DNA of 32,000 bases from an uncultured bacterium (GTDB lineage: Bacteria > Auribacterota > JACPWU01): assembly GCA_964640155.1 (NCBI GenBank), contig CAZXEQ010000005.1, forward strand, positions 154,353 through 186,352, read 5' to 3'. The translations under genes were made by a program, and so were the position numbers. Numbering within the stretch: position 1 is the stretch's first letter; each line of letters opens with the position of its first letter. Below the pieces are notes generated by a model. That model had not been told where the DNA came from and searched no databases. It was given only the letters and a program-made list of their open reading frames with translations. This document shows positions 1 to 14,782 of the stretch, one piece after another.

Positions 1-1828
1 GTTTTACTTCTTCCATTGCTTCATGAATCAATAAAGAGAGCAAAAATTCTACCCTGTCATGAAAAAGATTTTCCCCTATAGCTTCGTTATAATCATGAAT
101 CGTTTCGTAATCCTCTTGATTCACAATAATATGTAAAATACCGTTCTCAACATAGCGTCTGGCTTGAACATCCTTCACATCCTTCGAACGATAAAATTTT
201 ATTCTTCCTTCAGCCAAAGCTCTTTGAATACGCTTAAGGGCTTCTTCATATTTTGAATGTTGAGACAGACCAGGTGGGGTTCGATCACGAGACAATTGAT
301 CCAATTCTTTTCGCTTTAAAATTTCTTCTATTGCTGCCTGTATTTCCGTCTCTTTCTCTATCGGTTCTGCTTGAGATAAATCAATTTCATCAGATACAGT
401 ACAATGTCCTTCTACAGGAGAACCCACATATTTTGCTGCTCCTGAAATTGATCGTTCCGATTCTTTTGCTCGTGCGACCAACGAATCAGATGTTCTTTGA
501 ATCGCAGAAATACTGCGAGAGGGATCTTGCATATTAGAGATAAGAAGTTCTTTATATTGTTCCACCCAATAATCATTAAATCCTGCTTTTCTTAATCTTT
601 CTAAAATCCTACTTAAGAGTTGATTTCTCTGATTATAATCTCCCATTCTCTTCAATACTTCATCCAAAACTTCATGCCTTTCTTCCTCTGAGTTAAAACT
701 TAAATAAGGGTAAACTAGTTTGAAATATTCTTTAATTTCATCTACATCTCCTCCATCAAACACTGCTAACTCTTTTAGCGCTTTTTCAAATCTATCCTCC
801 TTAGTTTCGATCTTTGAAAGATCTATCAAACTAACTCTTCCAGAACCATCCACATGAAATAAAAGATGTTTCGGTTTAACATCTATAAGGCTTGTCATCA
901 ACATGAGCATTGCTAATTCTATTTTTTGTTCTCTCGTCATCATTTCACATGGATTACTGCTTGTTTCAGATTCCTGATATTCTGTAACCATATAAACTTC
1001 AGGTACTATCCCCCACCAAAGATCTCTCATTTGATATGTGACAGCAGGGGGAGATTGAATAACCGAAAGACCTAATTTCTCCATTACAATTCTGACGAAA
1101 ATTTCATTATAAAGAGCGTCGAACCCCTTCTCCATTCCGGAAAGAAAGCCTGTATCAGAATCTCGCTTCACAACATACTTCTTCCCATTAATTTCAACAA
1201 CTCTCGCATCCCCAACGGTTCCTCCTAGTCGTTCACCATTTAAAGTATGAGGGAACACCCCGTCAAAAAGCACTCTCACTTGATCCTCATTTAAAATGGC
1301 ATTGTGGAGCTTTGACACTACAACTTCTTTAGTTTTAGCAAAATAATCTCTAACCATTTGAGTTAATACAGAGTCTTTGCCAAAAGCTTTTTCCATCGAG
1401 GTTATCCAAAGTTGAACTTGAGCAGGATTTGAGCCATCTGCTTCTGGAAAATTAATAAAAAGAGATAACAACCGAAAGAGAGCATTTTGCTCTCTTTCAT
1501 CGAGCTCTGACCAAATCTTCGAAAGCCAAGATTCAAAAATATCTCGCGGAGATAGTCCTTTCCTAAGACCCTCTCTAAACTCACGAATCATGATATCTTC
1601 AAGAACAGAACGCTTATCTGCTGCAATATCTGACCATCTGTCTCCTGTGACAAGAGGAGTCTGTAAGGTTTCTTTAGATACTTGCGGATCAAATATTATC
1701 TGATCAATTGAAGAGTCTGCAAAAGCGTTTTTGAGGTCAATTCCCGAAAAGTCGAAAAAGAAGGTTAAAGAAAGACATATGGACAATGCCTTCGTCATAA
1801 AAGGTTTTAAACTATATTGAAATAACAT
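1..1828 (-). CDS. Exported hypothetical protein, 3' end cut by the window edge (at least 609 aa). It has a signal-like N-terminus, a 99-aa module paralogous to the giant ORF, and a protein-kinase-like core.
   Basis: Absent from the ORF track because no stop codon lies in the window. My manual minus-strand translation from ATG 1828 stays open for 609 codons down to nt 2. It starts MLFQYSLKPFMTKALSICLSLTFFFDFSGIDLKNAFADSS. A purine-rich GGAAGAAGG tract lies just upstream of the ATG, and the gene has its own promoter. Confidence 0.75.
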   Translation of the reverse strand, partial: MLFQYSLKPFMTKALSICLSLTFFFDFSGIDLKNAFADSSIDQIIFDPQVSKETLQTPLVTGDRWSDIAADKRSVLEDIMIREFREGLRKGLSPRDIFESWLSKIWSELDEREQNALFRLLSLFINFPEADGSNPAQVQLWITSMEKAFGKDSVLTQMVRDYFAKTKEVVVSKLHNAILNEDQVRVLFDGVFPHTLNGERLGGTVGDARVVEINGKKYVVKRDSDTGFLSGMEKGFDALYNEIFVRIVMEKLGLSVIQSPPAVTYQMRDLWWGIVPEVYMVTEYQESETSSNPCEMMTREQKIELAMLMLMTSLIDVKPKHLLFHVDGSGRVSLIDLSKIETKEDRFEKALKELAVFDGGDVDEIKEYFKLVYPYLSFNSEEERHEVLDEVLKRMGDYNQRNQLLSRILERLRKAGFNDYWVEQYKELLISNMQDPSRSISAIQRTSDSLVARAKESERSISGAAKYVGSPVEGHCTVSDEIDLSQAEPIEKETEIQAAIEEILKRKELDQLSRDRTPPGLSQHSKYEEALKRIQRALAEGRIKFYRSKDVKDVQARRYVENGILHIIVNQEDYETIHDYNEAIGENLFHDRVEFLLSLLIHEAMEEVK

Positions 1829-1867
1829 CCCCATTACCTTCTTCCTAAGTCCGCTTACAGCGTATAT

Positions 1868-1896
1868 ATTATACCACTTTTATCATCACTTTTCAA
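1868..1896 (-). promoter_or_regulatory. sigma-70-type promoter for the 1..1828 gene
   Basis: The minus strand reads TTGAAA, a 17-nt spacer ending in TGg (extended -10), then TATAAT. The -10 element is about 40 nt upstream of ATG 1828. Confidence 0.5.
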
Positions 1897-1978
1897 ATTT
1901 TAAATAATTTCTTAATTGCAAGCAAGAGAATGTATTGGGAATACAAAAATAGGATTAAATATAGAAGAAGATATCCTT

Positions 1979-4900
1979 TTAAGCTGCAACCTCAATTTCA
2001 GCCGGAGATCTTAAAACATGAGGAACACTTCGTGGCAACCCTGAAACTGCCTTTAAAACAGATTTTTTTAGAGAAATAGCGGTATCCGAAAGAGGTTGAT
2101 ACGCTTCCAACGCACGATCAAGCGCTTCTACAGAAGCTTGTGCAGAATCTAATTTTGACTTCAAAATCTCTGCTAATTGATGTGTTAACTCTTTTAAGAA
2201 TTGATCCCTTACTGATCCATCTAATATTGCATCTGCCCGTCTGGCACCTTCGGCTATCGCTCCTGCAAAATCGAAAGAATTACTAGCTTGTCGATAAGAA
2301 GCTAAAAAAGTTCTTATTTCTCCTTTTAGGACTTCTAAAGAATTCATCGTACTGAGAGGCGTCGCTTCGGTCCCTTTTTCCTCTTTCAACTCAATCTGAT
2401 TCAATTCAAGTTCTACACTCTGTCCACTTTCATCTTTTAACCAATGGATTTGAAGTGTCCCCTTCTCTTCATCGTAACTTAACAACTCTGGGAATGTATT
2501 CGATAACTCATTGAGATCTCTTAAGTAATATTCATAATCTCCTTCCGTTAAGTCTATTCTCCTTTGCCCTCTTAACACTCTCTCATGCAGTTCTTCTAAC
2601 AAATGATAATCCTCTTCACCCATCGCCTTCTCTTTACTTCGATCCTTCATTATTAAATATTCTTCTATTTTCTTAATTTTCTCTGCATCCAATGTCAGTT
2701 TTGTTCCTTGCCCTATTTCTCTTTCAAGGCTCTTGTTTTTCTTTTGTATGGCTTCTCTTAAGGTGTAGTAACCTTGTACTACTTGCTCTGTCCAAAATCT
2801 ATCAAAGGCCTCCAACCCTTCTGCCTCTAGTTTTTCTTTGAACAGTATGGCAAAAGAGCGATCCTGTTCTGTATGTTTTGCATTTCTTAATGTCTTCATA
2901 TCTCCAACTAAGATGAGTCGATCTGAAGCTCGACTCAATGCTACATTCAGCCGATTGATATTGGCGACAAAGCCTACTTTGCTTGGATCTGGGTTACTTC
3001 TTACAAAGCTATAGATGACTACTGCATTTTCTCTTCCCTGATAACTATCTACAGTCCCTATCTGGCTTTCTACGATAGCTTGTGCCTCATCTTTCTTCAT
3101 CTTTCTTTCTCTTATTAGATAGTCTCTTATCTTTTCTCTGATTAACTCTACCTGCGATTGATACGCTGATAATATACTTATCTGTTCTGATCTATACCCA
3201 GATGCCAATGCCCTTTTGTATTCTTCTAAGCATTTGTTTGCTTCTTCTGTGTTTTGATAGCTTGTACCCCTAGCTTCTTCATTGCCTGAAGCTTTTTTCA
3301 TAGGGACATCAACTCTTCTTACTGTGTCTTCTTCCATCATTCGCCATGTCTTAGGAACCATCATTTTGTTATAAATGAGTCGGCCTATCATGACGGATAT
3401 CACAGGATGGCTTCTATAGTTACGAGCTAAAAATGTTTGGGCTTGTCCTTTGTTCCATCTTCTTGCCATTCCACTTTCTTGGATCATTGCCCGATAGATG
3501 TCTGTTTGACCTTTCATCGCAGCTTCATCTATAAATGGCTCTAATTGTAAATGGTCTCCTGCTAAGATGATCTTTTCTTTTGCTTTTGCTCCTGCCAATA
3601 CCGTATCTATCTCATTGACGGTTCCTGCTTCATCTATAATGACAACATCATATTCTTGATCTGCCGTCTCCGGCACTCGATACATGGAGTCTGTTGTGAC
3701 TCCAACCACATATCCCTTTCCATTTGTTTTCCTTTTCTTAAACTCTTTCATTCCTTCCCCGTTATAGCCATCCTCCCTTGCTTGATTCCACACTTGATAT
3801 TTTCTTAGAGACTCTATAACTCGATCATCTCCTCTTCCTTCTTCTCCTCGACTATACGCTCTTAAAATAGGAACTTTATTTCGATCCAGTCGCTCTAATA
3901 CATTGTCTACGGCCAGATTTGTCCGACTGACCACCAATACTCTCTTGCCTTGCTTCACCAGCTGCTGTGCTATTTCTACCACTGTTGCGGTCTTCCCACT
4001 TCCTGCTCCTCCTTGTATCAACGCTACTTTTGTCCTAGGATGTAAGGCCATCCTTACAGCATTGGATTGGAATGGATCTTGAGCTACTCTTTCATCTTGG
4101 ATCTGAATCTTACTTTTCTCTTCGCTGATTTCTTCTTTATTGATTGTCTCTGGTTTTTCAAGCCCTAAAAGTTCTCTCGTTGCTCGACTTAAACCATTTC
4201 TTACTTGAGCTTTTCCTCCGATTGCTCTGAGCCTCTCTATTTGTATAGCTCTTAAGGCAACATTATTGCCTAGCTCTTTTTCTTTGCCTTCAACCATCTC
4301 TTTTAATTCTCCCAAAACGTTTTTCAGCTCCTTACTCTGAGAGCTATGTCCTACCTCTCCGGGTAGTTTTAATGATGTTACTTTGGCTTCTCTGTTATAT
4401 TCTTCATCTAAGATGCTTATTTCTGGTAATGCAATTCCAAATCGCCGGGCTGCTTCTAGAAGCGATTCATTGGGCTCTTTTCCATTGAGCAATGCCCAGC
4501 TGTCATTCGTTAGTCCTCTCCTTACTCTATCCTCTAACGCTTGCTCTACCAGACCGGGACTGGAATACCCTTGCGCTTTCATCACCCGCAACATCCAATG
4601 TCCATGTATAGGTGATTTAATCAGTCGACTTAATCGCGTGATCATTCTACCTTCAACTTCTCTTTGCGTCTCATAAATCCATTCTTCTAATGTTTCATCA
4701 TAAAATCGTCTCACTTTTACTTTGCCAGGTTTTCCAATTCCTGTGGAAAGTATAGCTTTCTTGTGCTTTCCATCATCAGTCCAAGAAAAATGGACTCTAC
4801 CACCGCTATACACTTCTGTTTTCCATTCCAAAGGTTCAAACCCATCCTTATTTTGGACATCTTGAGCCTTAAGCTGTTGAATAACTTTTTCTTTATTGCG

Positions 4901-7900
4901 ATCAAATATTTCAAGCTTCCAGAAATTTTTGCCCTCTTCCTTAACCAATCTAGATTGTTTTACAATTTCTTTTTGATTTTCTCCCTTCCCTTCTACTCGA
5001 CGCGTCTCATATACCCACTCTTTCAGATCTTCATCATAAAATCGGCTCGCCTGAACTCTTCCCTTTTTCATAGTGCCCGTAGCAAGACGAGCTCTCTTTT
5101 TCTGTCCATTGTCTATCAAAGAAAAATTAATTTGTCCGTAATTGTCTGATTCTGTTTCCCACTGCAGGGGCTCAAACTTATCCTTATTTTGGGCATCTTG
5201 GGCCTTAAGATGTTGAATAACTTTTTCTTTATTGCGATCAAACATTTCAAGCTTCCAGAAATTTTTGCCCTCTTCCTTAACCAATCTAGATTGCTTTACA
5301 ATTTCTTTTTGATTTTCTCCCTTCCCTTCTACTCGACGCGTCTCATATACCCACTCTTTCAGATCTTCATCATAAAAACGCCTCACTTTCACTTGTCCTT
5401 TTTTATTAACTCCTGTGGAAAGACGAACTTTTTCTATGTGTGCATTGTCCCTCCAAAAAAAGCCAACTAATCCAGCACTATCTGTATCTACAGTCCACTC
5501 CATAACCTCAAACGCATCCTTATTCTTGGCATCTTGGGCCTTAAGTTGTTGAATAACCTTCTCTTTATATCTATCAAATATTTCAAACTTCCAGAAATTT
5601 TTACCCTCTTCCTTAACCAGTCGTGATTGTCTAATTATCTCTTGCTTATTTTCCCCTTTCCCCTCTACACGCTGAGTCTCATACACCCATTCTTTAAGAT
5701 CTCTATCATAAAAACGCCTTACTTGAACTTGGCCTTTTTTCCCAGTCCCTGTAGAAAGATAGACCTCGTTTCTCTGTTCATTATCGGTCCAAAAAAAACC
5801 AACTAATCCAGCACTATTTGTCTCTACAGTCCACTCTAAGGGTTCAAATGTATCTTCATTTTGAGCATCTTGGGTCTTAAGCTGTTGAATAACCTTTTCT
5901 CTATAACGATCAAAGACTTCGAATTGCCAATAACCTTGGCCTTCTTCCTTAACCAGTCGTGATTGTCTAACGATCTCTTCTTGTTTTTCTCCATCTCCTT
6001 CTACACGTCGCGTCTCATAAATCCATTCTTTGAGCTCTTCATCATAAAATCGTCTTACTTGTACTCGGCCTTCTTTAGCAATGCCTGTGGAAAGATTCAC
6101 TGTCTTTTGCTGTTCCTTATCCGTCCAAGTAAAACTGATTAATCCTTTACTATCCGTATCTACAGTCAACTCTAGAGACTTAAATACATCCTTATTCCGA
6201 GCATCTTGAGTTTTAAGTTGCTGAATAATTTTCTCTTTATTGCGATCAAACCTTTCAAAATGCCAGTGATTTTGACCTTCTTCCTTAACCAGTCGTGATT
6301 GTCTAACGATCTCTTCTGCTTTTCCTTCTACACGTCGAGTCTCATAAATCCATTCTTTGAGCTCTTCATCATAAAATCGTCTCACCTGAGCTCTGCCGGT
6401 TTTAGCAATCCCCGTAGAAAGAATAACTGTCTTTTTCTGTTTATTGTCCGTCAAAAAAAATTTGACTTGACCATAAGCACTTGTATCTGTGATCCATTCA
6501 ATGGGCTCAAATGCAGTAGGTGACTGATCATCCAATTGTCGAAGTTGGCGCAAAACATCTACTCTTGCTTCTTTAGCTTCTAGCTTGCGATATTGCACTT
6601 CTTTCATCAAAGCTCCAGGTTTTATAACTCCATACAGATCAAATAAAAATGGATTTAATTGTTTTATTTCTCTCTGTAATATTCTCGCATCTTCTTCTGC
6701 AAGCTCTTTTTCTAATATCTCTTCATCAGGTTGCTCTCCAATTGGTGATTTCTTCAAAAATTCATGTACGGTTTCATGAGACATTCCAGTTAAAAACGAT
6801 GCTCTACGATGGGTTTTATCTTTGATATTCAAAAAGGCAAGGATATTGATGTAGTATTGGCCATCTGTTTTATGATTACCAAAAAGGGTTCGGTATTCTT
6901 TTTGGGTTCGATCCGATCCAAAATGAAGGGTAAATGGCCCAGCTGTTAATTCTATTCCCTGTAATCTATGTCGACTTCGAATAATTTTCCCCAATTCTGC
7001 ATAAAACTCATCACGACTCATGTCTGTTCCCACACCCATGGCCTTTTCCAAGCGTTTTAATTCTGGACTTTCATCAAATTTAATATCTCCATTCGTTACA
7101 GTAAACGTGACGTTTTTCCCATCCAATGCCTGATACGTTTCTGCATCTTCTGCCTCCGTTGGAGCAGCAAGGCCTTCGTTAACTTCAGCACTAAAATGGG
7201 CAATCTTTATCGTTTTATTTTCTTCGTATGTTCCCTTTCGCATATCATTCTTAAATTGTAAATATCCCCATAGGGTTAATCTACGTTCTTTCCAAATCTT
7301 ATTTCTATTATCTAATTGCTCCAAATGCTGTTTATATCTGGGCGTCTTTATATCATCCCTAGTTGCAAGTAATCGAGATAATTGACGATCTTGAGCTTCT
7401 TTTGTTAACTGGACAATTAATTCTTCATTAGCCTCACCTTGTTTATATTCTCTCTTCACCCCTTCAAAAAAATCACGATCCAAATATCCATGCAAAGCTT
7501 GAAAATAGTAATTTGTCTCTACTTTTCTCAACTCTTCTATAGAGGCTTGAATAGATGTTATAATATTTTCTAATTCTGATTCATCAGCCCTTCCCTTTAC
7601 AACTTGATTTAATAACTCAAAAAGTTTTTCTTCTTCTTTGCGTTCGATCTCTTGTCTCCTCTGAATATCAGCAAGAAGTCCCAAAACGCTTCTTTCTTCT
7701 AAAAGATAAATTTGCTTACGGGTATATTGGGGAATTGCATTTTCATAACTAAACGCTACAGAAACCCCTCGATCAACTTTTTTGTCGTTTCTTCCTTCAT
7801 AATTCATTAATACATAATCAACTTCATGTAATGCTTTATTTCCGATTGCTACTACCTCTTCATCGCCTTTCGTTGCCGCCGCTTCTCCACCTTTTCTTCC

Positions 7901-10900
7901 ATAGTGACATAAGGCCGTCGTTACAGCATGCGTTACATATTTGGCTTCTTGACTATCTACTTCTAAAGAGCCACGATAAATCGTCGTTACCAGTTGAATC
8001 GTAGTAATAATGAAACCTTTATCATCTACTCGATATCCTATTTCTTCCATTAAAGCTAGAACTTCGATTTTGTAACTTTCATCTACTTTTAAATCTTTCA
8101 ATAAATCGCTAAAAGCGTATCTCCCTTCATTTTCCTTAAGTCTAAGTTTTGACCGCAGGGAAATCATTCCAGGCAATAAATAAGGATTTGTAGTTTGATC
8201 AGCTAATTCTTGAATTAAATCGCTGCTATATGAAACAATAGCGTTCGCATGATTCAAAAGCAAAGCCCTGACACGATCTTTAAGTGAGTATGCATCACTT
8301 ACTTCTTCTTCCTTAAGATAAGCGATTCTGAGATGTAAAAACGGATTTTGGGAAACACTAGTCCATGTCTTATCCTGAATGCCTTCTACACGCGCAAAAT
8401 CTTGATATCCAAAACTGTCACTCATCACAAGCAGGCCTATATCCACGAGATTCTCCTGGGAGATACTTTGAATTTCTTTCTCATTTTCCAGTCTAATAAT
8501 ATCGCCTAAAAGCAAAGCTTCTAAACCCTGATAAACCAATGGAGCATCCTTGCCCTTTAAATCAAAGCGGTTCATCACTCGGCTTAAAATCTGTATATCT
8601 TCTTCTTTCTGGAGTACCCCTTTAGAAAATAATACCGCAAAAAACTGAGGCCCCCATAGAGAACCTAGCCATTCCTGATCAATCACGTCTTTCAATAACT
8701 CTCTCATCTTAGGAATATTCTCCGCTGTCAATGCTCCTTGAGTCACCAAGCGGTTTATAACGCGATAACGATTCATCGTTTTTCTGCTTACAGGTTTTGA
8801 CAATCCTTGAAACCAATTTCGAGAATTTTCTAAATTCTCTTCGGTCTTTGCACCGCTTTCAAGAAGAGAAGAAAATGCATCTAGAGCCAAAGGACCGCTA
8901 ATCCATGGTTCACGACTAATGACTTCAACAACATGCAAAAACCAATCTTTGTTGCCGGGGTTTATATCTTCTGGAAGGCTGCCCAAAACCTCAAAACGCT
9001 TATCTTTAAATGAGTCATGATTGGCATCAATCTGGTCTATCACTTCTACAATAAGATCAAGATTTAATGTTCTAGAGTATAAAACCTGCGCTACGATGCC
9101 TCTTGCGACCAATAGACTAAAAACACGTTTGGTTTTCCAATTATTTGTCCAGCTTCTGTCCGCTATTTTTTCTAAAGTTTCCAATAAAGAATTCTGCATT
9201 TGTTCAGGATAGCTATCAAAGGTAACAGATATAAACTGCAACATTTCAATAACAGCACTTGAAGATGCCGGCCTCAGTTGAGCAATCCTATCCATCCAAT
9301 TTAAAAACTCTGCAAGGTTTTTTTCTGTTATTACACCCGATTTCACCAAACCGATAAAAACTTCTTTTCCCCTAGGAATTCTTAACCACTTATCGTTTTT
9401 AAAGGTTTCCAAAAAATCACTGATGGTTTGAACAATATCTTTTAATTTTTCATCTTCTGCAGCAGCACTTTCTAAATCACGAATAAGCGCTCTTGTTAAA
9501 TCAGACATAACAACTAGAGGGACAACTACTGAAGCAAGCTCATCTTTTTTCTGCCCCTCTAAACTTTCAAAATATTCTCTTACAATCTGAGTTAAAACAG
9601 AATCTTCTCCAAAAGCCTTGTTCATCATGTCTAACCAAATTTTAGCTTGTGTTGGATTTGAAGCATTCGCTTCAGGGAAATTCACAAATTGTGACAACAA
9701 AGTTCGCAAAGATGTATGTTCTTGTTCATCTAAACCATCCCAAATCCTAGAAAGCCAACCTTCAAATATTTGGCGCGGGGATCGGCCTTGTGCTAAACCT
9801 TCCCGTAAATCATCTGCCATCATATTCTCAAGAACAGGTCGTTTTGGCTCTCCAATTTGAGCCCAAATATTTCCTGTAGGAGCAGGATTTTGAAGCATTT
9901 TCTGAATTTCACTTGAGCTATGCCCCACTAAACGTTTTTCAGAAAATTCTACATTTTCTAAATCATAGGCCTCGTCCATCATGATTCTTTCATATAAATC
10001 AGAAGAAATATCTCCATTCACTTGAGGGGTCCATGTGGTATACGAAATCCCCTTTGCCTCTAAAAGCTTTTGAATTCCTTCGGTGTGAAAGCCACCGGTG
10101 ATTAAAATGATTGTACGCTGTGCAGCTTTGTTCATATTTTTTAAAGCATTCTCCAAAAGAATTTGGTCTCGTTTTTGAGCTAATTCATAAAAATGTTGGG
10201 CTTCTTGAATGAGTAAATCCCAATCTTTAGAGAAAGAAGGAGATTTTAGAGAAGTAAGCATGAAACCTAACTGTCGAAACAATTCTTGAGGAGATTTTTC
10301 AACTGTTTCTACAAGTTCTTTTCTTGAAAGTTCTAAATTGATCCATTTCTGCAATAAATGCCATTGTTCATTTATTTTTACAATATTTTCTACCTTTTCT
10401 TGATCCGCTTGTTTCTTGATTTGTTCATCTATCAATTGCGATAAATTTAAATGTGCTTTATCAAAATCAATTTTCCCCTGCTGCTGAAGAAAATCAATCC
10501 AAATTTCCAGTGTGGGGTATTGTCGCTTAAAAGAGTTTTTACTGATCTTTTCTTCAAAAATATTTTTCAAGAAAGAAAAGTGTTTTACAGTGGATAATTT
10601 GCCTAAACGATATTCCAAGCTACTTCTTACAACATTTTGAAGTTCTTCTCTAGAGAGTCTGTTCTGAAAGGATTGCAACAACTCATTATATTCTTTTTGT
10701 ACCTTTGCAGAATCAATCTCTTTTTGCAAAGTATTTAACTGCCATAACTCATTTGTTTTTAATAATTTATCTAAATCCGCTTTTTCGAGCAAAGCAATGA
10801 TCTTTTCCAAAGAAAATTTATTGCTGCTCATTCCTTTTTGAGCTTGATCTAAAAGCAGTAACTTTTTTGAATATGATTTCTTTTTAATACTTTCTAACCA

Positions 10901-11473
10901 CTGATTGAAATTTTCTATTTCGTCTTTAAGCTTTTGATAAAGCAACCGTGTTTGTCTGAAGGCCTTAAAATTTTCAAGATAAATTTCAGAATTTTCTACA
11001 CCCATCAAATCAATTTTGCTTTCAGGGCCTTCTGAAATCACTGCAAATTCTGCACCTGTTAAATACCCTTCATTCAAAAATTTCTTAGCTACATTTTTGC
11101 GAATATTCGAATCTGGAAAAGATTGATAGAGAAGTGTTCTTAGGGGCCCTTCAGCACCTTCTACAAAAACCTGATCAATTCCTTTTTGATTCAAAGCTAA
11201 AATACTTTGAGCAATTTTTTCTTGAGCCTCAGGCTGGCAATGTAAATCTCGTATTAGAAAAATATTATTCTTCGAATTACTTTGATAGTTTTTGCCTTGT
11301 ATCATTCCAGGCAATGAAAGATCTTTAAAAGAGATTGGTAAAGAGGCAGAAAAAGAAGGACTGGCTTCTAATGTAGAAACTACTCCGACATTTAAAATAA
11401 GATTAAAAACGAGAAATGGAACAAGAACCATTTTCAACCATCGATAGCTTTGTGAGGGACACAAAAATGACAT
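1979..11473 (-). CDS. Giant multidomain protein, 3164 aa. Contains a signal/anchor, TraB/Tiki-like halves, an HExxH region, two repeat arrays and an SF1 helicase.
   Basis: An uninterrupted 9.5-kb frame in an AT-rich genome, with an ATG start. The helicase motifs are unambiguous, and the internal repeats are in frame. All overlapping plus-strand ORFs are short shadow ORFs. Confidence 0.9.
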   Translation of the reverse strand: MSFLCPSQSYRWLKMVLVPFLVFNLILNVGVVSTLEASPSFSASLPISFKDLSLPGMIQGKNYQSNSKNNIFLIRDLHCQPEAQEKIAQSILALNQKGIDQVFVEGAEGPLRTLLYQSFPDSNIRKNVAKKFLNEGYLTGAEFAVISEGPESKIDLMGVENSEIYLENFKAFRQTRLLYQKLKDEIENFNQWLESIKKKSYSKKLLLLDQAQKGMSSNKFSLEKIIALLEKADLDKLLKTNELWQLNTLQKEIDSAKVQKEYNELLQSFQNRLSREELQNVVRSSLEYRLGKLSTVKHFSFLKNIFEEKISKNSFKRQYPTLEIWIDFLQQQGKIDFDKAHLNLSQLIDEQIKKQADQEKVENIVKINEQWHLLQKWINLELSRKELVETVEKSPQELFRQLGFMLTSLKSPSFSKDWDLLIQEAQHFYELAQKRDQILLENALKNMNKAAQRTIILITGGFHTEGIQKLLEAKGISYTTWTPQVNGDISSDLYERIMMDEAYDLENVEFSEKRLVGHSSSEIQKMLQNPAPTGNIWAQIGEPKRPVLENMMADDLREGLAQGRSPRQIFEGWLSRIWDGLDEQEHTSLRTLLSQFVNFPEANASNPTQAKIWLDMMNKAFGEDSVLTQIVREYFESLEGQKKDELASVVVPLVVMSDLTRALIRDLESAAAEDEKLKDIVQTISDFLETFKNDKWLRIPRGKEVFIGLVKSGVITEKNLAEFLNWMDRIAQLRPASSSAVIEMLQFISVTFDSYPEQMQNSLLETLEKIADRSWTNNWKTKRVFSLLVARGIVAQVLYSRTLNLDLIVEVIDQIDANHDSFKDKRFEVLGSLPEDINPGNKDWFLHVVEVISREPWISGPLALDAFSSLLESGAKTEENLENSRNWFQGLSKPVSRKTMNRYRVINRLVTQGALTAENIPKMRELLKDVIDQEWLGSLWGPQFFAVLFSKGVLQKEEDIQILSRVMNRFDLKGKDAPLVYQGLEALLLGDIIRLENEKEIQSISQENLVDIGLLVMSDSFGYQDFARVEGIQDKTWTSVSQNPFLHLRIAYLKEEEVSDAYSLKDRVRALLLNHANAIVSYSSDLIQELADQTTNPYLLPGMISLRSKLRLKENEGRYAFSDLLKDLKVDESYKIEVLALMEEIGYRVDDKGFIITTIQLVTTIYRGSLEVDSQEAKYVTHAVTTALCHYGRKGGEAAATKGDEEVVAIGNKALHEVDYVLMNYEGRNDKKVDRGVSVAFSYENAIPQYTRKQIYLLEERSVLGLLADIQRRQEIERKEEEKLFELLNQVVKGRADESELENIITSIQASIEELRKVETNYYFQALHGYLDRDFFEGVKREYKQGEANEELIVQLTKEAQDRQLSRLLATRDDIKTPRYKQHLEQLDNRNKIWKERRLTLWGYLQFKNDMRKGTYEENKTIKIAHFSAEVNEGLAAPTEAEDAETYQALDGKNVTFTVTNGDIKFDESPELKRLEKAMGVGTDMSRDEFYAELGKIIRSRHRLQGIELTAGPFTLHFGSDRTQKEYRTLFGNHKTDGQYYINILAFLNIKDKTHRRASFLTGMSHETVHEFLKKSPIGEQPDEEILEKELAEEDARILQREIKQLNPFLFDLYGVIKPGALMKEVQYRKLEAKEARVDVLRQLRQLDDQSPTAFEPIEWITDTSAYGQVKFFLTDNKQKKTVILSTGIAKTGRAQVRRFYDEELKEWIYETRRVEGKAEEIVRQSRLVKEEGQNHWHFERFDRNKEKIIQQLKTQDARNKDVFKSLELTVDTDSKGLISFTWTDKEQQKTVNLSTGIAKEGRVQVRRFYDEELKEWIYETRRVEGDGEKQEEIVRQSRLVKEEGQGYWQFEVFDRYREKVIQQLKTQDAQNEDTFEPLEWTVETNSAGLVGFFWTDNEQRNEVYLSTGTGKKGQVQVRRFYDRDLKEWVYETQRVEGKGENKQEIIRQSRLVKEEGKNFWKFEIFDRYKEKVIQQLKAQDAKNKDAFEVMEWTVDTDSAGLVGFFWRDNAHIEKVRLSTGVNKKGQVKVRRFYDEDLKEWVYETRRVEGKGENQKEIVKQSRLVKEEGKNFWKLEMFDRNKEKVIQHLKAQDAQNKDKFEPLQWETESDNYGQINFSLIDNGQKKRARLATGTMKKGRVQASRFYDEDLKEWVYETRRVEGKGENQKEIVKQSRLVKEEGKNFWKLEIFDRNKEKVIQQLKAQDVQNKDGFEPLEWKTEVYSGGRVHFSWTDDGKHKKAILSTGIGKPGKVKVRRFYDETLEEWIYETQREVEGRMITRLSRLIKSPIHGHWMLRVMKAQGYSSPGLVEQALEDRVRRGLTNDSWALLNGKEPNESLLEAARRFGIALPEISILDEEYNREAKVTSLKLPGEVGHSSQSKELKNVLGELKEMVEGKEKELGNNVALRAIQIERLRAIGGKAQVRNGLSRATRELLGLEKPETINKEEISEEKSKIQIQDERVAQDPFQSNAVRMALHPRTKVALIQGGAGSGKTATVVEIAQQLVKQGKRVLVVSRTNLAVDNVLERLDRNKVPILRAYSRGEEGRGDDRVIESLRKYQVWNQAREDGYNGEGMKEFKKRKTNGKGYVVGVTTDSMYRVPETADQEYDVVIIDEAGTVNEIDTVLAGAKAKEKIILAGDHLQLEPFIDEAAMKGQTDIYRAMIQESGMARRWNKGQAQTFLARNYRSHPVISVMIGRLIYNKMMVPKTWRMMEEDTVRRVDVPMKKASGNEEARGTSYQNTEEANKCLEEYKRALASGYRSEQISILSAYQSQVELIREKIRDYLIRERKMKKDEAQAIVESQIGTVDSYQGRENAVVIYSFVRSNPDPSKVGFVANINRLNVALSRASDRLILVGDMKTLRNAKHTEQDRSFAILFKEKLEAEGLEAFDRFWTEQVVQGYYTLREAIQKKNKSLEREIGQGTKLTLDAEKIKKIEEYLIMKDRSKEKAMGEEDYHLLEELHERVLRGQRRIDLTEGDYEYYLRDLNELSNTFPELLSYDEEKGTLQIHWLKDESGQSVELELNQIELKEEKGTEATPLSTMNSLEVLKGEIRTFLASYRQASNSFDFAGAIAEGARRADAILDGSVRDQFLKELTHQLAEILKSKLDSAQASVEALDRALEAYQPLSDTAISLKKSVLKAVSGLPRSVPHVLRSPAEIEVAA
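2894..4066 (-). other. Upf1/DNA2-like superfamily-1 helicase module of the giant ORF (aa ~2470-2860)
   Basis: Ordered motif set:
- Walker A GGAGSGKT (nt 3989-4012, checked against the DNA)
- motif Ia SRTNLAVDNVLERL
- motif II VIIDEAG
- motif III ILAGDHLQLEP
- motif IV NYRSHPVI
- motif V TVDSYQGRE
- motif VI RLNVALSRA
This matches the AAA_11/AAA_12-type Upf1/Sen1/DNA2 pattern. Confidence 0.85.
4574..6511 (-). repeat. In-frame tandem coding repeat: five full units of ~112 aa (336 nt) plus one degenerate unit (aa 1655 to ~2300 of the giant ORF)
   Basis: Unit starts (FEPxEW-like) fall at aa 1655, 1764, 1876, 1988, 2100 and 2212, giving periods of 109 then 112 x4. The consensus core is LSTGxxKxGxVxVRRFYDExLKEWxYETRRVEGxGExxxEIVxQSRLVKEEGxNxWxFExFDRxKEKVIQQLKxQDAxNKD. 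Confidence 0.9.
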
Positions 11474-11539: not shown

Positions 11540-11568
11540 AATATAGCATTTTTATGAAGAGTTTTCAA
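11540..11568 (-). promoter_or_regulatory. Candidate sigma-70-type promoter for the giant ORF
   Basis: The minus strand reads TTGAAA, a 17-nt spacer ending in TGc, then TATATT. This is the same architecture as the 1868-1896 promoter. It lies about 65 nt upstream of ATG 11473. Confidence 0.4.
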
Positions 11569-14539: not shown

Positions 14540-14613
<74 letters not shown>

Positions 14614-14710: not shown

Positions 14711-14782
14711 GCCAGGGTAGCTCAGAGGTAGAGCGGGGCTCTCATAAGGCCTAGGTCGTGGGTTCGATTCCCCCCTCTGGCA
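14711..14782 (+). tRNA. tRNA with CAU anticodon: either elongator Met or tRNA-Ile2 (the lysidine substrate)
   Basis: Manual cloverleaf: acceptor GCCAGGG/CTCTGGC, D arm GCTC-AGAGGTA-GAGC, anticodon loop CTCATAA, T loop TTCGATT. There is one U50-C64 mismatch in the T stem. Met versus Ile2 identity cannot be decided by eye. Confidence 0.75.

Follow-up and report, generated by a model that had tools for sequence, protein, structure and literature searches.

What kind of protein is encoded by an uninterrupted frame of 9.5 kb in an uncultured bacterium, and on which side of the cell membrane its modules would work, is the question raised by this locus. The stretch of 32,000 nucleotides analysed here is referred to as the window throughout; the giant ORF begins with ATG and its product has 3164 amino acids (ORF listing). 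The frame is real, it is coding over its full length and its codon usage is native. It contains no in-frame stop, against a density of 30-60 stops per 1.5 kb in the two remaining frames; the order GC1>GC2>GC3 is found in each block of 500 codons, and the correlation of RSCU with the housekeeping genes of the window is r = 0.82. The genes directly upstream code for TilS and for a PNP_UDP_1 (MTAP-like) protein, and no mobile-element genes are present across the 32 kb. A sequence-only reading had described a single continuous chromosomal gene made of several modules and placed right after tilS-mtnP, and this description is borne out in both respects. The TilS/PNP context is not kept in the 3-kb flanks of 80 related loci. 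The window carries TonB, which indicates a diderm envelope; it also encodes PolX.

That the giant ORF is an assembly artefact, or a decaying pseudogene read through by chance, is hardly credible. The source is a contig of metagenome type, the gene includes a tandem repeat and an independent assembly of it was not found; against this, the 3164 stop-free codons compare with a maximum of 160 across 50 shuffles of the window, codon usage is native with a uniform codon-position bias, and the repeat units, 72-83% identical in DNA, are too divergent for collapse. In addition, dN/dS is 0.14-0.22 in five of the six repeat-unit pairs compared, and every module either is conserved in homologues elsewhere or retains its catalytic motifs intact. 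The features of the gene and of its surroundings are collected in Table 1.

Table 1. Features of the giant gene and of its flanks; positions are those of the window, and residues (aa) those of the giant protein.
Feature	Position	Strand	Basis or remark
Match to a sigma-70-like promoter (TTGAAA-17-TATATT, TG present) within the 150 bp that precede the giant gene	11540..11568	-	consensus match only
Whole gene, 3164 codons and stop	1979..11473	-	ORF listing; absence of in-frame stops; coding periodicity
aa 1-37, predicted signal peptide or anchor, with R11/K14 as n-region and aa 15-33 as h-region, followed by TLEA|SP	11363..11473	-	hydropathy
aa 45-500, family-defining head, predicted TIKI/TraB-superfamily-like alpha/beta hydrolase core	9974..11341	-	alignment, AlphaFold2, Foldseek, motif comparison
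aa 162-449, all-helical insertion splitting the head core	10127..10990	-	secondary structure of the model
aa 537-640, neck module	9554..9865	-	a copy directly follows the signal peptide in P0098; present in the closest relatives as well
aa 690-1000, degenerate helical repeats, motif L-x-x-G-[VA]-x-T-x-E-N-[LI] at aa 709, 870, 909, 948	8474..9406	-	weak
aa 1050-1430, modA, alpha+beta	7184..8326	-	exhaustive search, alignment, AlphaFold2
aa 1420-1640, modB, putative zinc hydrolase	6554..7216	-	HExxHE at aa 1566-1571 (window 6761-6781)
aa 1655-2310, tandem array of five full units of ~112 aa plus a sixth that is divergent and shortened	4544..6511	-	TRF, self-comparison
aa 2469-2860, Upf1/IGHMBP2-like SF1B helicase core	2894..4069	-	Pfam, motifs, PDB homology
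aa 3049-3125, C-terminal tail element	2099..2329	-	48% identity to the downstream giant
Match to a sigma-70-like promoter (TTGAAA-17-TATAAT, 11/12, TG present) in the spacer from the first giant gene to the second	1868..1896	-	consensus match only
First part of the downstream gene, which runs past the edge of the window	1..1834	-	full product P0098, 2,843 aa

The N-terminus is indeed of the signal peptide or signal anchor type, as had been proposed: its hydrophobic stretch (aa 15-33) has a Kyte-Doolittle mean of 2.24, with R11 and K14 preceding it, and signal-peptide-like N-termini are found in nearly all relatives of the protein. The region that follows had been read as TraB/GumN/Tiki-like halves. 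Its AlphaFold2 model (pLDDT 86, pTM 0.78) predicts an alpha/beta core interrupted by ~290 helical residues, whose best fold match in the PDB by Foldseek is HopBA1 (5T09; prob 0.96, E 0.07, low TM-score), a member of the TIKI superfamily (PMC6254334). In 25 diverse aligned members the residues D76, H78, Q84, E105, R435 and G460-G461-F462-H463 are invariant. The TIKI catalytic residues are given as E3900-x-H3902...E3930...H4030, with H85/E113 in Bcr135 and a spacing of 28 from His to Glu (PMC6254334); D76-x-H78, E105 and H463 of the head correspond to this (E)xH...E...H pattern, with 27 residues from H78 to E105, and provide the 2His/2Glu catalytic set with Asp, not Glu, as the first acidic residue. 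At the level of sequence profiles, TraB (PF01963), Cofac_haem_bdg (PF04187) and Erythro_esteras (PF05139) gave no Pfam match at E<=10 for the 25 head sequences, Pfam and NCBIfam gave no match on the head of the giant protein itself, and head profiles run against PDB sequences, both at full length and for the core only, returned noise and no TIKI member. The head is thus probably TIKI/TraB-like by modelled fold and catalytic motif, with no sequence-profile link; the earlier assignment stands on the first two grounds but not as a match to a Pfam or NCBIfam family.

The likeness to the TIKI/TraB/PrgY/erythromycin-esterase/ChaN superfamily, whose solved members include RRSP of MARTX toxins, PMT C1/C2, HopBA1, Bcr135 and ChaN, would consist in an alpha/beta core whose catalytic residues sit where strands end, in the succession of (D/E)xH, a Glu 27-28 residues on and then a His, together with a conserved Arg, and, as regards Tiki and PrgY, in the placement of the domain right after a signal peptide. 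Conversely, the head of the giant protein differs from the known members in having no HMMER-level similarity to any of those in Pfam or the PDB, in the Asp that replaces the first Glu, in the all-helical insertion that divides its core and in its position at the head of proteins of ~2-6 kaa, the known ones being small enzymes or effectors internal to toxins.

The same head is found in many other proteins, and the giant protein, with the anatomy described here, very probably belongs to a large family of head-sharing paralogues that has not been described so far. About 74 retrieved proteins of 1.7-5.5 kaa share with it only aa ~50-500, always at the N-terminus (subject start 1-169), and differ in their Pfam cargo; on contigs representing one genome per species, the head matches at least 578 loci, several per genome, so that the protein is no isolated oddity. 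Members of the family have 1.7-6.4 kaa and come from uncultivated lineages of PVC type and their neighbours, in MAGs mostly of Omnitrophota, Auribacterota and Elusimicrobia, and the cargo behind the head, different in each paralogue, consists mostly of cytoplasmic-type enzymes.

Two earlier suggestions, that the architecture matches no characterised family and that it might belong with the giant ORFs of Omnitrophota, hold in part. Pfam, NCBIfam and PADLOC families do not cover the architecture, but the kind of protein is already known: giant exported multi-enzyme proteins have been described for Omnitrophota (bioRxiv 10.1101/2023.11.21.568195; 10.64898/2026.06.07.730766; PMC10066038), and that literature faces the same puzzle of cytoplasmic-type enzymes on proteins bearing a signal peptide or transmembrane (TM) segments. 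Likewise, the general phenomenon is that of Omnitrophota, but the nearest relatives of the head are in Auribacterota (Ca. Theseobacter exili, 38%) and in a MAG labelled Chlamydiota, not in Omnitrophota. With the Omnitrophota giants, among them the 'Archaeovorins' and the 'multi-enzyme metabolic cluster' class of Nielsen & Lui 2026, the protein shares an origin in uncultivated PVC-related lineages, targeting to the membrane (by signal peptide, TM helices or both) of a chain of unrelated cytoplasmic-type enzymes, helical-repeat scaffolds and poor sequence conservation outside domains. The catalogues of those proteins, however, begin at 10-30 kaa, and their entries have TM helices by the tens as well as SecA-DEAD or C39 domains, while the present one has 3.2 kaa, no convincing TM segment after the signal segment and no SecA or C39 match (Pfam E<=1); moreover, the TIKI-like head does not figure in the accounts of those papers. 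Neither the shared head nor the cargo combination of the giant protein is described in that literature.

A second comparison is with MARTX and polymorphic toxins, where a conserved part for trafficking and processing is likewise joined to a variable enzymatic cassette, and where TIKI-fold and HExxH modules also occur; the resemblance is one of analogy. Differently from these toxins, the giant protein lacks repeats of the RTX, RHS or filamentous types, a CPD and any recognised translocation domain, it is accompanied by no immunity gene, and its cargo is made of housekeeping-type enzymes, not of known toxins; in Pfam searches of the protein and its neighbours no translocation repeats, CPD/HINT domain or immunity gene were detected.

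Behind the head, the neck module is 59% identical to its copy in P0098, in agreement with the duplication noticed earlier for aa 537-635. The degenerate helical repeats that had been placed at aa ~695-975 are weakly supported by the recurrence of their motif and not by self-similarity, since no significant self-alignment was obtained for the region, nor any Pfam match. The stretch from aa 1000 to 1650, regarded before as one unassigned region, consists instead of two separable recurrent modules, modA and modB. These are rare, with 60 matches among 1.84 billion proteins, and their joint AlphaFold2 model has a pLDDT of 88; by Foldseek against the PDB nothing better than E ~0.65 was found for it, and known zincins were not matched. 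About 45 relatives of modA emerged from an exhaustive search, with the conserved motifs YRGSxExD, THxxTTAxxHYAxxGGE, FHE[FV]D and RKRT, and neither a fold nor a sequence match to it was found in the PDB. The HETVH motif pointed out earlier belongs to modB, where G-x-[ST]-H-E-x-[VM]-H-E is kept in all 11 aligned copies, along with GN[H/C] at aa 1532-1534 and [EQ]D at aa 1594-1595. In the model the HExxH would lie on a helix (504-524, alignment numbering) beside a 4-stranded sheet, as in zincins; GN[H/C]1534, E1571 and D1595 are candidates for the third metal ligand, and modB has no sequence match in the PDB or Pfam. It occurs in up to 3-4 copies in P0096 and in two in P0002, and also as stand-alone proteins of 173-205 aa (P0105 and P0137). 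Two further searches yielded unreliable negatives: aa 640-2460 used as query retrieved only itself and missed P0002, a true relative, and a chimeric query of repeat unit, linker and C-terminus retrieved nothing, itself included.

What had been called the downstream gene does carry the duplicated module but is itself a second giant with three modules in common with the first, namely the neck, modB and the tail. The part of it that falls in the window is identical to P0098 over 599 of 599 residues, and the order along P0098 is signal peptide, neck module, CheR-like methyltransferase, modB, His_Phos_1, second methyltransferase and shared tail. Both giants end in E-[VT]-A-A, and the C-terminus of the first, previously left unassigned, remains so for the most part, except for the tail element shared with P0098. 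A kinase-like appearance of P0098 at aa 150-480, noted by eye, was discarded as it has no Pfam or PDB support.

The six tandem repeats of 112 aa reported from the letters were recovered by Tandem Repeats Finder (TRF), with a period of 336 bp, 4.9 copies and 78% matches, and by the spacing of the protein units (109/112/112/112/112 aa). The repeats are under purifying selection: the low dN/dS values given above come from pairs among units 2-5, with dS ~1, while the youngest pair gives 0.58. Homologues of the repeats are absent from the PDB and from JGI metagenome contigs, and metagenome scans with the whole giant protein and with a repeat profile found no relatives. A Pfam hit to Pcf11_C (46.5 bits, E 3.5e-12) was rejected as a sign of homology: it arises from a single short motif, RRFYDEELKEW[IV]YE, which scores once in each of six near-identical units and of which one stretch alone passes by itself, and the zinc-binding cysteines are missing from the repeats.

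As for the helicase in the cargo, with its Upf1-like 5'-3' core, the earlier description as a full Upf1/DNA2-like SF1 enzyme proved correct. AAA_11 (77.2 bits, E 2e-21) and AAA_12 (120.6 bits, E 8e-35) both exceed the cut-off of 27, and all seven motifs are intact: I (GGAGSGKT 2488), Ia (SRTNLAVDN 2516), II (IIDEAG 2612), III (LAGDHLQLEP 2637), IV (ARNYRSHP 2683), V (TVDSYQGRE 2807) and VI (NVALSRA 2843). Its closest solved relatives are IGHMBP2 and Upf1 chains (E ~1e-26), while the IGHMBP2 equivalog model TIGR00376 scores 163.4 bits against a cut-off of 348.9, so that the protein does not count as such an equivalog. The core thus resembles the Upf1-like SF1B helicases (IGHMBP2, Upf1/NAM7, ZNFX1, DNA2, Sen1; in bacteria COG1112 and Mokosh MkoA), but it is devoid of their CH, R3H and nuclease accessory domains and is embedded in a giant protein with a signal peptide. 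A role in anti-phage defence, as a relative of the Mokosh MkoA helicases, was considered and is very improbable. PADLOC MkoA models do match aa 2438-2878 with E 1.4e-57, and the NCBIfam model for a PLuB system helicase-like protein matches with E 6e-26, far under its cut-off; the similarity is nevertheless limited to the generic Upf1-like core, no other Mokosh component was found, P0098 has no PADLOC match, the genomic context is of the housekeeping type, and the family is defined by its secreted head, most paralogues carrying metabolic enzymes and not a helicase. The Mokosh-type reading was rejected, the helicase core alone being matched.

An intact helicase behind an export signal brings back the question of where the protein works. 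The reading tentatively preferred here, that it is exported and acts outside the cytoplasm of its producer, is possible and stops short of being probable. The gene product would be a native, Sec-targeted modular 'polyenzyme', whose N-terminus would carry it across the cytoplasmic membrane and whose head would be a peptidase or esterase working on the outer side of this membrane, like Tiki and PrgY; the head and modB would be candidates for processing or release. ATP-dependent cargo, that is the helicase here and the methyltransferases, the phosphatase and the by-eye kinase-like region in P0098, would be active only where nucleotides are available, hence inside another cell after delivery. In favour of it, TIKI-fold domains are present in delivered toxins and effectors (RRSP of MARTX, PMT, HopBA1; PMC6254334). 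Against it, a free-living, fermenting life has been deduced for Auribacterota, the nearest relatives (PMC9324843), and neither a module for translocation or pore formation nor a gene for a secretion system or for immunity was identified. The wider proposal, that the signal peptide and the split TIKI-like head mark a phylum-spanning superfamily of exported polyenzymes whose nucleotide-dependent cargo is delivered to another cell and works there, the head serving in processing or tethering, is clearly unlikely; such proteins would be inter-cellular effectors of lineages otherwise regarded as partly free-living. As part of it, the notion that the three modules in common would let the two adjacent giants cooperate is doubtful to the same degree.

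Hydropathy offers a different topology, with export incomplete, in which the protein would be a receptor-like membrane tether, with head and neck in the periplasm, a weak TM segment at aa 646-664 or a retained N-terminal anchor, and aa ~665-3164 in the cytoplasm of the producer, where the helicase, modA and modB would act at the membrane on its own RNA or DNA, possibly regulated by whatever the head senses or cleaves outside. The requirement of a helicase with all motifs intact for cytoplasmic ATP speaks for this arrangement, which is on the unlikely side. The stretch at aa 646-664 has a marginal Kyte-Doolittle score of 1.81 and aligns with the start of TM1 of P0007 and P0008 (VVVPLVV vs MVFPLIV and LVLPFVV), but it contains D and R, only 11 of its hydrophobic residues are uninterrupted and the flank after it is net negative. 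Hydrophobic segments follow the head in about half of the family members, mostly in odd number (one in 10 proteins, three in 13, two in 2), but this parity is sensitive to a crude cut-off for hydropathy. P0011 and P0059, which bear a helicase, each contain one strict TM segment between head and helicase, while by the same analysis none follows the head in the giant protein and its closest relatives (P0002-P0006), nor in the neighbour P0098. Several clear signal-peptide-only paralogues still hold ATP- or UTP-dependent enzymes, which also weighs against a tether. Tiki and PrgY reportedly have the order signal peptide, TIKI domain, TM, a topology that Bazan et al. are said to have described in 2013 and that would suit a tether.

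The two putative hydrolase modules, whose catalytic-type residues are fully conserved, raise the additional possibility of a polyprotein precursor, the giant chain being only a vehicle for synthesis and export, cut into separate proteins that act independently by the head and/or the HExxHE module. The repetition of modB in P0096 and P0002, as might be expected of a spacing or processing element, and its stand-alone copies are consistent with it; West-Roberts et al. propose proteolytic processing of giant proteins, and MARTX autoprocessing and the C39/S8 peptidases suggested for giants of Omnitrophota offer analogies. This reading is quite improbable: the chain is not known to have cleavage sites or to yield processed products, the peptidase activity is deduced from motifs, and TIKI-family enzymes also include esterases (PMC6254334). 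It would fit either topology, as an addition to export or tethering and not as an exclusive alternative.

Giant multi-enzyme proteins of Omnitrophota and other uncultivated bacteria related to them are a recognised puzzle, being a large investment for small genomes and combining export signals with enzymes that use cytoplasmic cofactors, and almost nothing in them is conserved enough for testing. The head, with its ~450 aa, its clear catalytic-type motif and its occurrence in hundreds of mid-sized members from several phyla, is a small and expressible handle, and the HExxHE module modB, available also as a small stand-alone protein, is a comparable one. If the cargo does work outside the producer, lineages such as Auribacterota would need to be re-evaluated as cell-cell interactors; if it is cytoplasmic, these proteins would be a new type of receptor-like enzyme scaffold. 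For the roughly half of the paralogues with hydrophobic segments after the head, P0011 and P0059 included, these would place the cargo in the cytoplasm, which counts against export as the general rule.

The reading frame of the giant gene contains no in-frame stop; on the same strand, the other two frames have 30-60 stops per 1.5 kb, and in 50 shuffled versions of the window no stop-free run exceeds 160 codons. In each 500-codon block, GC content decreases from the first to the second to the third codon position; relative synonymous codon usage correlates with that of the window's 15 housekeeping genes (r = 0.82), and GC3 is the same (0.29 versus 0.30). The open frame, the codon-position GC and the matching codon usage therefore show that the gene is real, coding over its full length and native to the genome. 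Its setting is chromosomal, with no transposase or integrase in the surroundings; other genes of the window code for a GT2 glycosyltransferase, P-II/Amt, a GAF histidine kinase, peptide deformylase, PolX, an MFS transporter, APS kinase and TonB, the last indicating a diderm envelope.

Features of the giant gene, its product and its surroundings (residues refer to the giant protein, nucleotides to the window)
Feature	Residues	Nucleotides	Strand	Remarks
Giant gene		1979..11473	minus	single open frame, 3,164 codons, ATG start
TilS and PNP_UDP_1 (MTAP-like) phosphorylase				directly upstream of the giant gene
Two tRNA-Met (CAT)		14540-14613, 14711-14782	plus	~100 bp apart, between zinc-ribbon ORF and GT2 gene
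Antisense ORF, 128 aa		4763-5149	plus	GTG start; within the repeat region of the giant gene
Downstream gene		1-1834, extends past window start	minus	first 599 residues identical to the related protein P0098 (2,843 aa)
Signal-peptide-like N-terminus	1-37			n-region with R11 and K14; hydrophobic stretch of 19-21 residues; then TLEA|SP
All-helical insertion splitting the head core	162-449			predicted (AlphaFold2 model)
Neck module	537-640			59% identical to the segment directly after the downstream protein's signal peptide
modA	~1050-1430			~45 relatives, most of them large and with a signal-peptide-like N-terminus
modB	~1420-1640			putative zinc-hydrolase module
Six repeat units of ~112 aa	1655-2310			protein spacing 109/112/112/112/112
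Upf1-like SF1B helicase	2469-2860			AAA_11 and AAA_12 above threshold
Shared tail element	3049-3125	2099-2329	minus	48% identical to the downstream protein's C-terminal tail

No model in Pfam or NCBIfam matches the N-terminal head (aa 45-500). About 74 other proteins can be aligned with precisely these residues at 20-38% identity, always through their own N-terminus, and the preceding signal-peptide-like segment is conserved across the family. In an alignment of 25 diverse members D76, H78, Q84, E105, G106, G158, Y165, R435, G460-G461-F462-H463 and P483 are invariant. The AlphaFold2 model derived from this alignment is confident (pLDDT 86, pTM 0.78) and predicts a small alpha/beta core, with strands at aa 57-63, 70-76, 101-104, 155-159, 454-460 and 477-483. 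Foldseek against the PDB gave HopBA1 (5T09) as top match, with a probability of 0.96 and no match below E 1e-3. HopBA1 belongs to the TIKI-superfamily structures together with Bcr135, ChaN, PMT and RRSP, and the catalytic set of these enzymes comprises E3900-x-H3902, E3930 and H4030 in RRSP and H85/E113 in Bcr135 (PMC6254334). D76-x-H78, E105 and H463 of the head reproduce this pattern, with a His-to-Glu spacing of 27 residues instead of 28; the head thus carries a TIKI-type catalytic constellation. The sequence-only reading had proposed TraB/GumN/Tiki-like halves here: the four active-site residues bear this out for the active site and the HopBA1 match suggests the same for the fold, but a link by sequence profile was not demonstrable, either with Pfam on the 25 members or against PDB sequences.

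Head-bearing proteins measure 1.7-5.5 kaa in the main retrieval and up to 6.4 kaa overall, and the Pfam set differs in each member, indicating a modular exchange of cargo between paralogues. The cargo includes enzymes (PGK, FBPase, phosphoglucomutase, RelA/SpoT, AceK, cytidylate kinase, HD, UbiB/ABC1 kinases, M48 peptidase, metallophosphoesterases, glycosyltransferases, radical SAM, RNase III and Lon) and HEAT and TPR scaffolds; a helicase of the same type as in the giant is found in the relatives P0011, P0059 and P0122, the last without a recognisable head. A scan for the head pattern in one genome per species returned at least 578 loci. The best 80 of these are labelled Omnitrophota (33), Elusimicrobia (13), "uncultured Planctomycetia" (11), Auribacterota (7), unclassified (11) and a few others; among these 80, several genomes have three or four copies each, and the closest loci, with 36-38% identity, belong to Ca. 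Theseobacter exili (Auribacterota). The genome of the window is not itself one of the representatives scanned. When queried with a repeat-containing or a chimeric sequence, word-indexed homology searching overlooked relatives already known, and the chimeric query did not even recover its source protein; the negatives from these two queries are unreliable.

Giant proteins have been described before. Omnitrophota giant ORFs have few annotated domains, poor conservation and no known function (PMC10066038). West-Roberts et al. reported proteins of at least 30 kaa that combine numerous TM helices with SecA-DEAD and C39 domains; these proteins also contain domains of metabolic enzymes, and the authors were puzzled that such domains are predicted to lie outside the cell. 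Nielsen & Lui listed 916 proteins of at least 10 kaa, defined a "multi-enzyme metabolic cluster" class and found topologies of 39% SP+TM, 46% TM-only and 9% SP-only. Thus, the giant is the same kind of object as the Omnitrophota giants, on a smaller scale. In the passages compared, none of the three papers mentions a conserved TIKI-like head and "TraB" does not occur in West-Roberts et al., nor does "giant" or "large protein" in the Auribacterota description (PMC9324843); no paper among the 10 full-text matches listed, of 180, pairs Omnitrophota with TraB, GumN or TIKI terms. As far as found in these sources, the family-defining head and the cargo combination of the giant are undescribed so far.

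The neck module is present also in the closest relatives of the giant. In aa 690-1000 one motif recurs at positions 709, 870, 909 and 948, which suggests a helical repeat some 39 aa long; no significant self-similarity was detected within this segment. An exhaustive HMMER search with aa 1000-1660 yielded just 60 relatives among 1.84 billion representative proteins and divided the region into two independent modules. modA has the conserved motifs YRGSxExD, THxxTTAxxHYAxxGGE, FHE[FV]D and RKRT. For modB, BLAST gave 14 related segments in 10 other proteins; it occurs in three to four copies within one giant, P0096 (5,912 aa), and also as small stand-alone proteins (P0105, 205 aa; P0137, 173 aa). 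All 11 aligned copies, from 9 proteins including the giant itself, keep G-x-[ST]-H-E-x-[VM]-H-E, a GN[H/C] some 30 residues before the HExxHE motif and an [EQ]D some 25 residues after it. The joint modA+modB model is confident (pLDDT 88) and places the HExxH of modB on a predicted helix beside a four-stranded sheet. Foldseek with this model found no PDB structure at an E-value better than 0.65, and neither module had a hit when profiles were run against PDB sequences; the zinc-hydrolase function is therefore deduced from motif and local architecture, and is not a demonstrated family membership.

TRF describes the following repeats as a 336-bp period with 4.9 copies and 78% matches. Units 2-5 share 72-83% DNA identity; dS is about 0.9-1.4 and dN/dS 0.14-0.22 for five of the six pairs among these units, while the youngest pair, units 4 and 5, has dS 0.30 and dN/dS 0.58. 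The duplications are therefore old, selection on the protein maintains the units, and their divergence is too great for an assembly collapse; that the giant is an artefact is unlikely. Neither the PDB nor the JGI metagenome contigs yielded a relative of the repeats. The Pfam model Pcf11_C scores 46.5 bits (E 3.5e-12) over the region (4574-6511, minus strand), but this homology was rejected, the score being one short motif counted six times in near-identical units, and the scores of several further Pfam families are inflated in the same way. The antisense ORF in this region is most likely a by-product of repeat composition.

The helicase has all motifs I-VI intact; its nearest solved structures are IGHMBP2 (E 1e-26), Upf1/NAM7, ZNFX1, DNA2 and Sen1, and it scores below the IGHMBP2 equivalog cut-off. 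A role of the giant in defence is unlikely, and the PADLOC match to MkoA is limited to the helicase core. Codons 2501-3000 (2974-4473, minus strand), covering most of the helicase, deviate in codon usage (r 0.35 versus housekeeping genes; 0.65-0.81 in other blocks) and have a slightly higher GC3 (0.34), which could reflect a different module history or merely amino-acid composition.

By hydropathy, no convincing further transmembrane helix is present in the giant, in its closest relatives or in P0098, which, taken literally, would mean export of the entire chain from the cytoplasm. The giant would be threaded through Sec, and on the outside of the cytoplasmic membrane, the location that Bazan et al. 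(2013) reportedly assign to Tiki and PrgY, the head may cleave peptides or esters. The ATP-dependent helicase of a wholly exported chain would be able to work only in another cell, and we hold this reading tentatively, as possible yet short of probable. The main rival is a receptor-like topology with cytoplasmic cargo. In half of the head family, hydrophobic segments follow the head, and their number is mostly one or three: among P0001-P0064 and P0098, a strict hydropathy rule, whose counts shift with the threshold, gives none in 32, one in 10, two in 2, three in 13 and at least four in 8, and the excess of odd counts would put head and cargo on opposite membrane sides in those paralogues. In the giant itself, a marginal hydrophobic stretch (aa 646-664) aligns with the first TM of the relatives P0007 and P0008, but it includes Asp and Arg residues and the flank behind it is acidic; the receptor-like topology is rather unlikely for this protein. 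Both export and the receptor-like arrangement would be consistent with proteolytic cleavage by the head or modB.

The downstream product, P0098, consists, from N- to C-terminus, of a signal peptide, the neck, a kinase-like region read by eye that has no database support, a CheR-like methyltransferase, modB (40% identical to the giant's copy), a His_Phos_1 phosphatase, a second methyltransferase and the shared tail. Two giants with three common modules (neck, modB and tail) thus lie in tandem at this locus. The tail element, of about 75 aa (SFDFAGAIAEGA..FLKEL.HQLA), was not found in the other 142 proteins compared and could be a sorting, docking or degradation signal; both proteins terminate in E-[VT]-A-A. 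A sigma-70-like promoter match lies in the upstream gap of each of the two giant genes.
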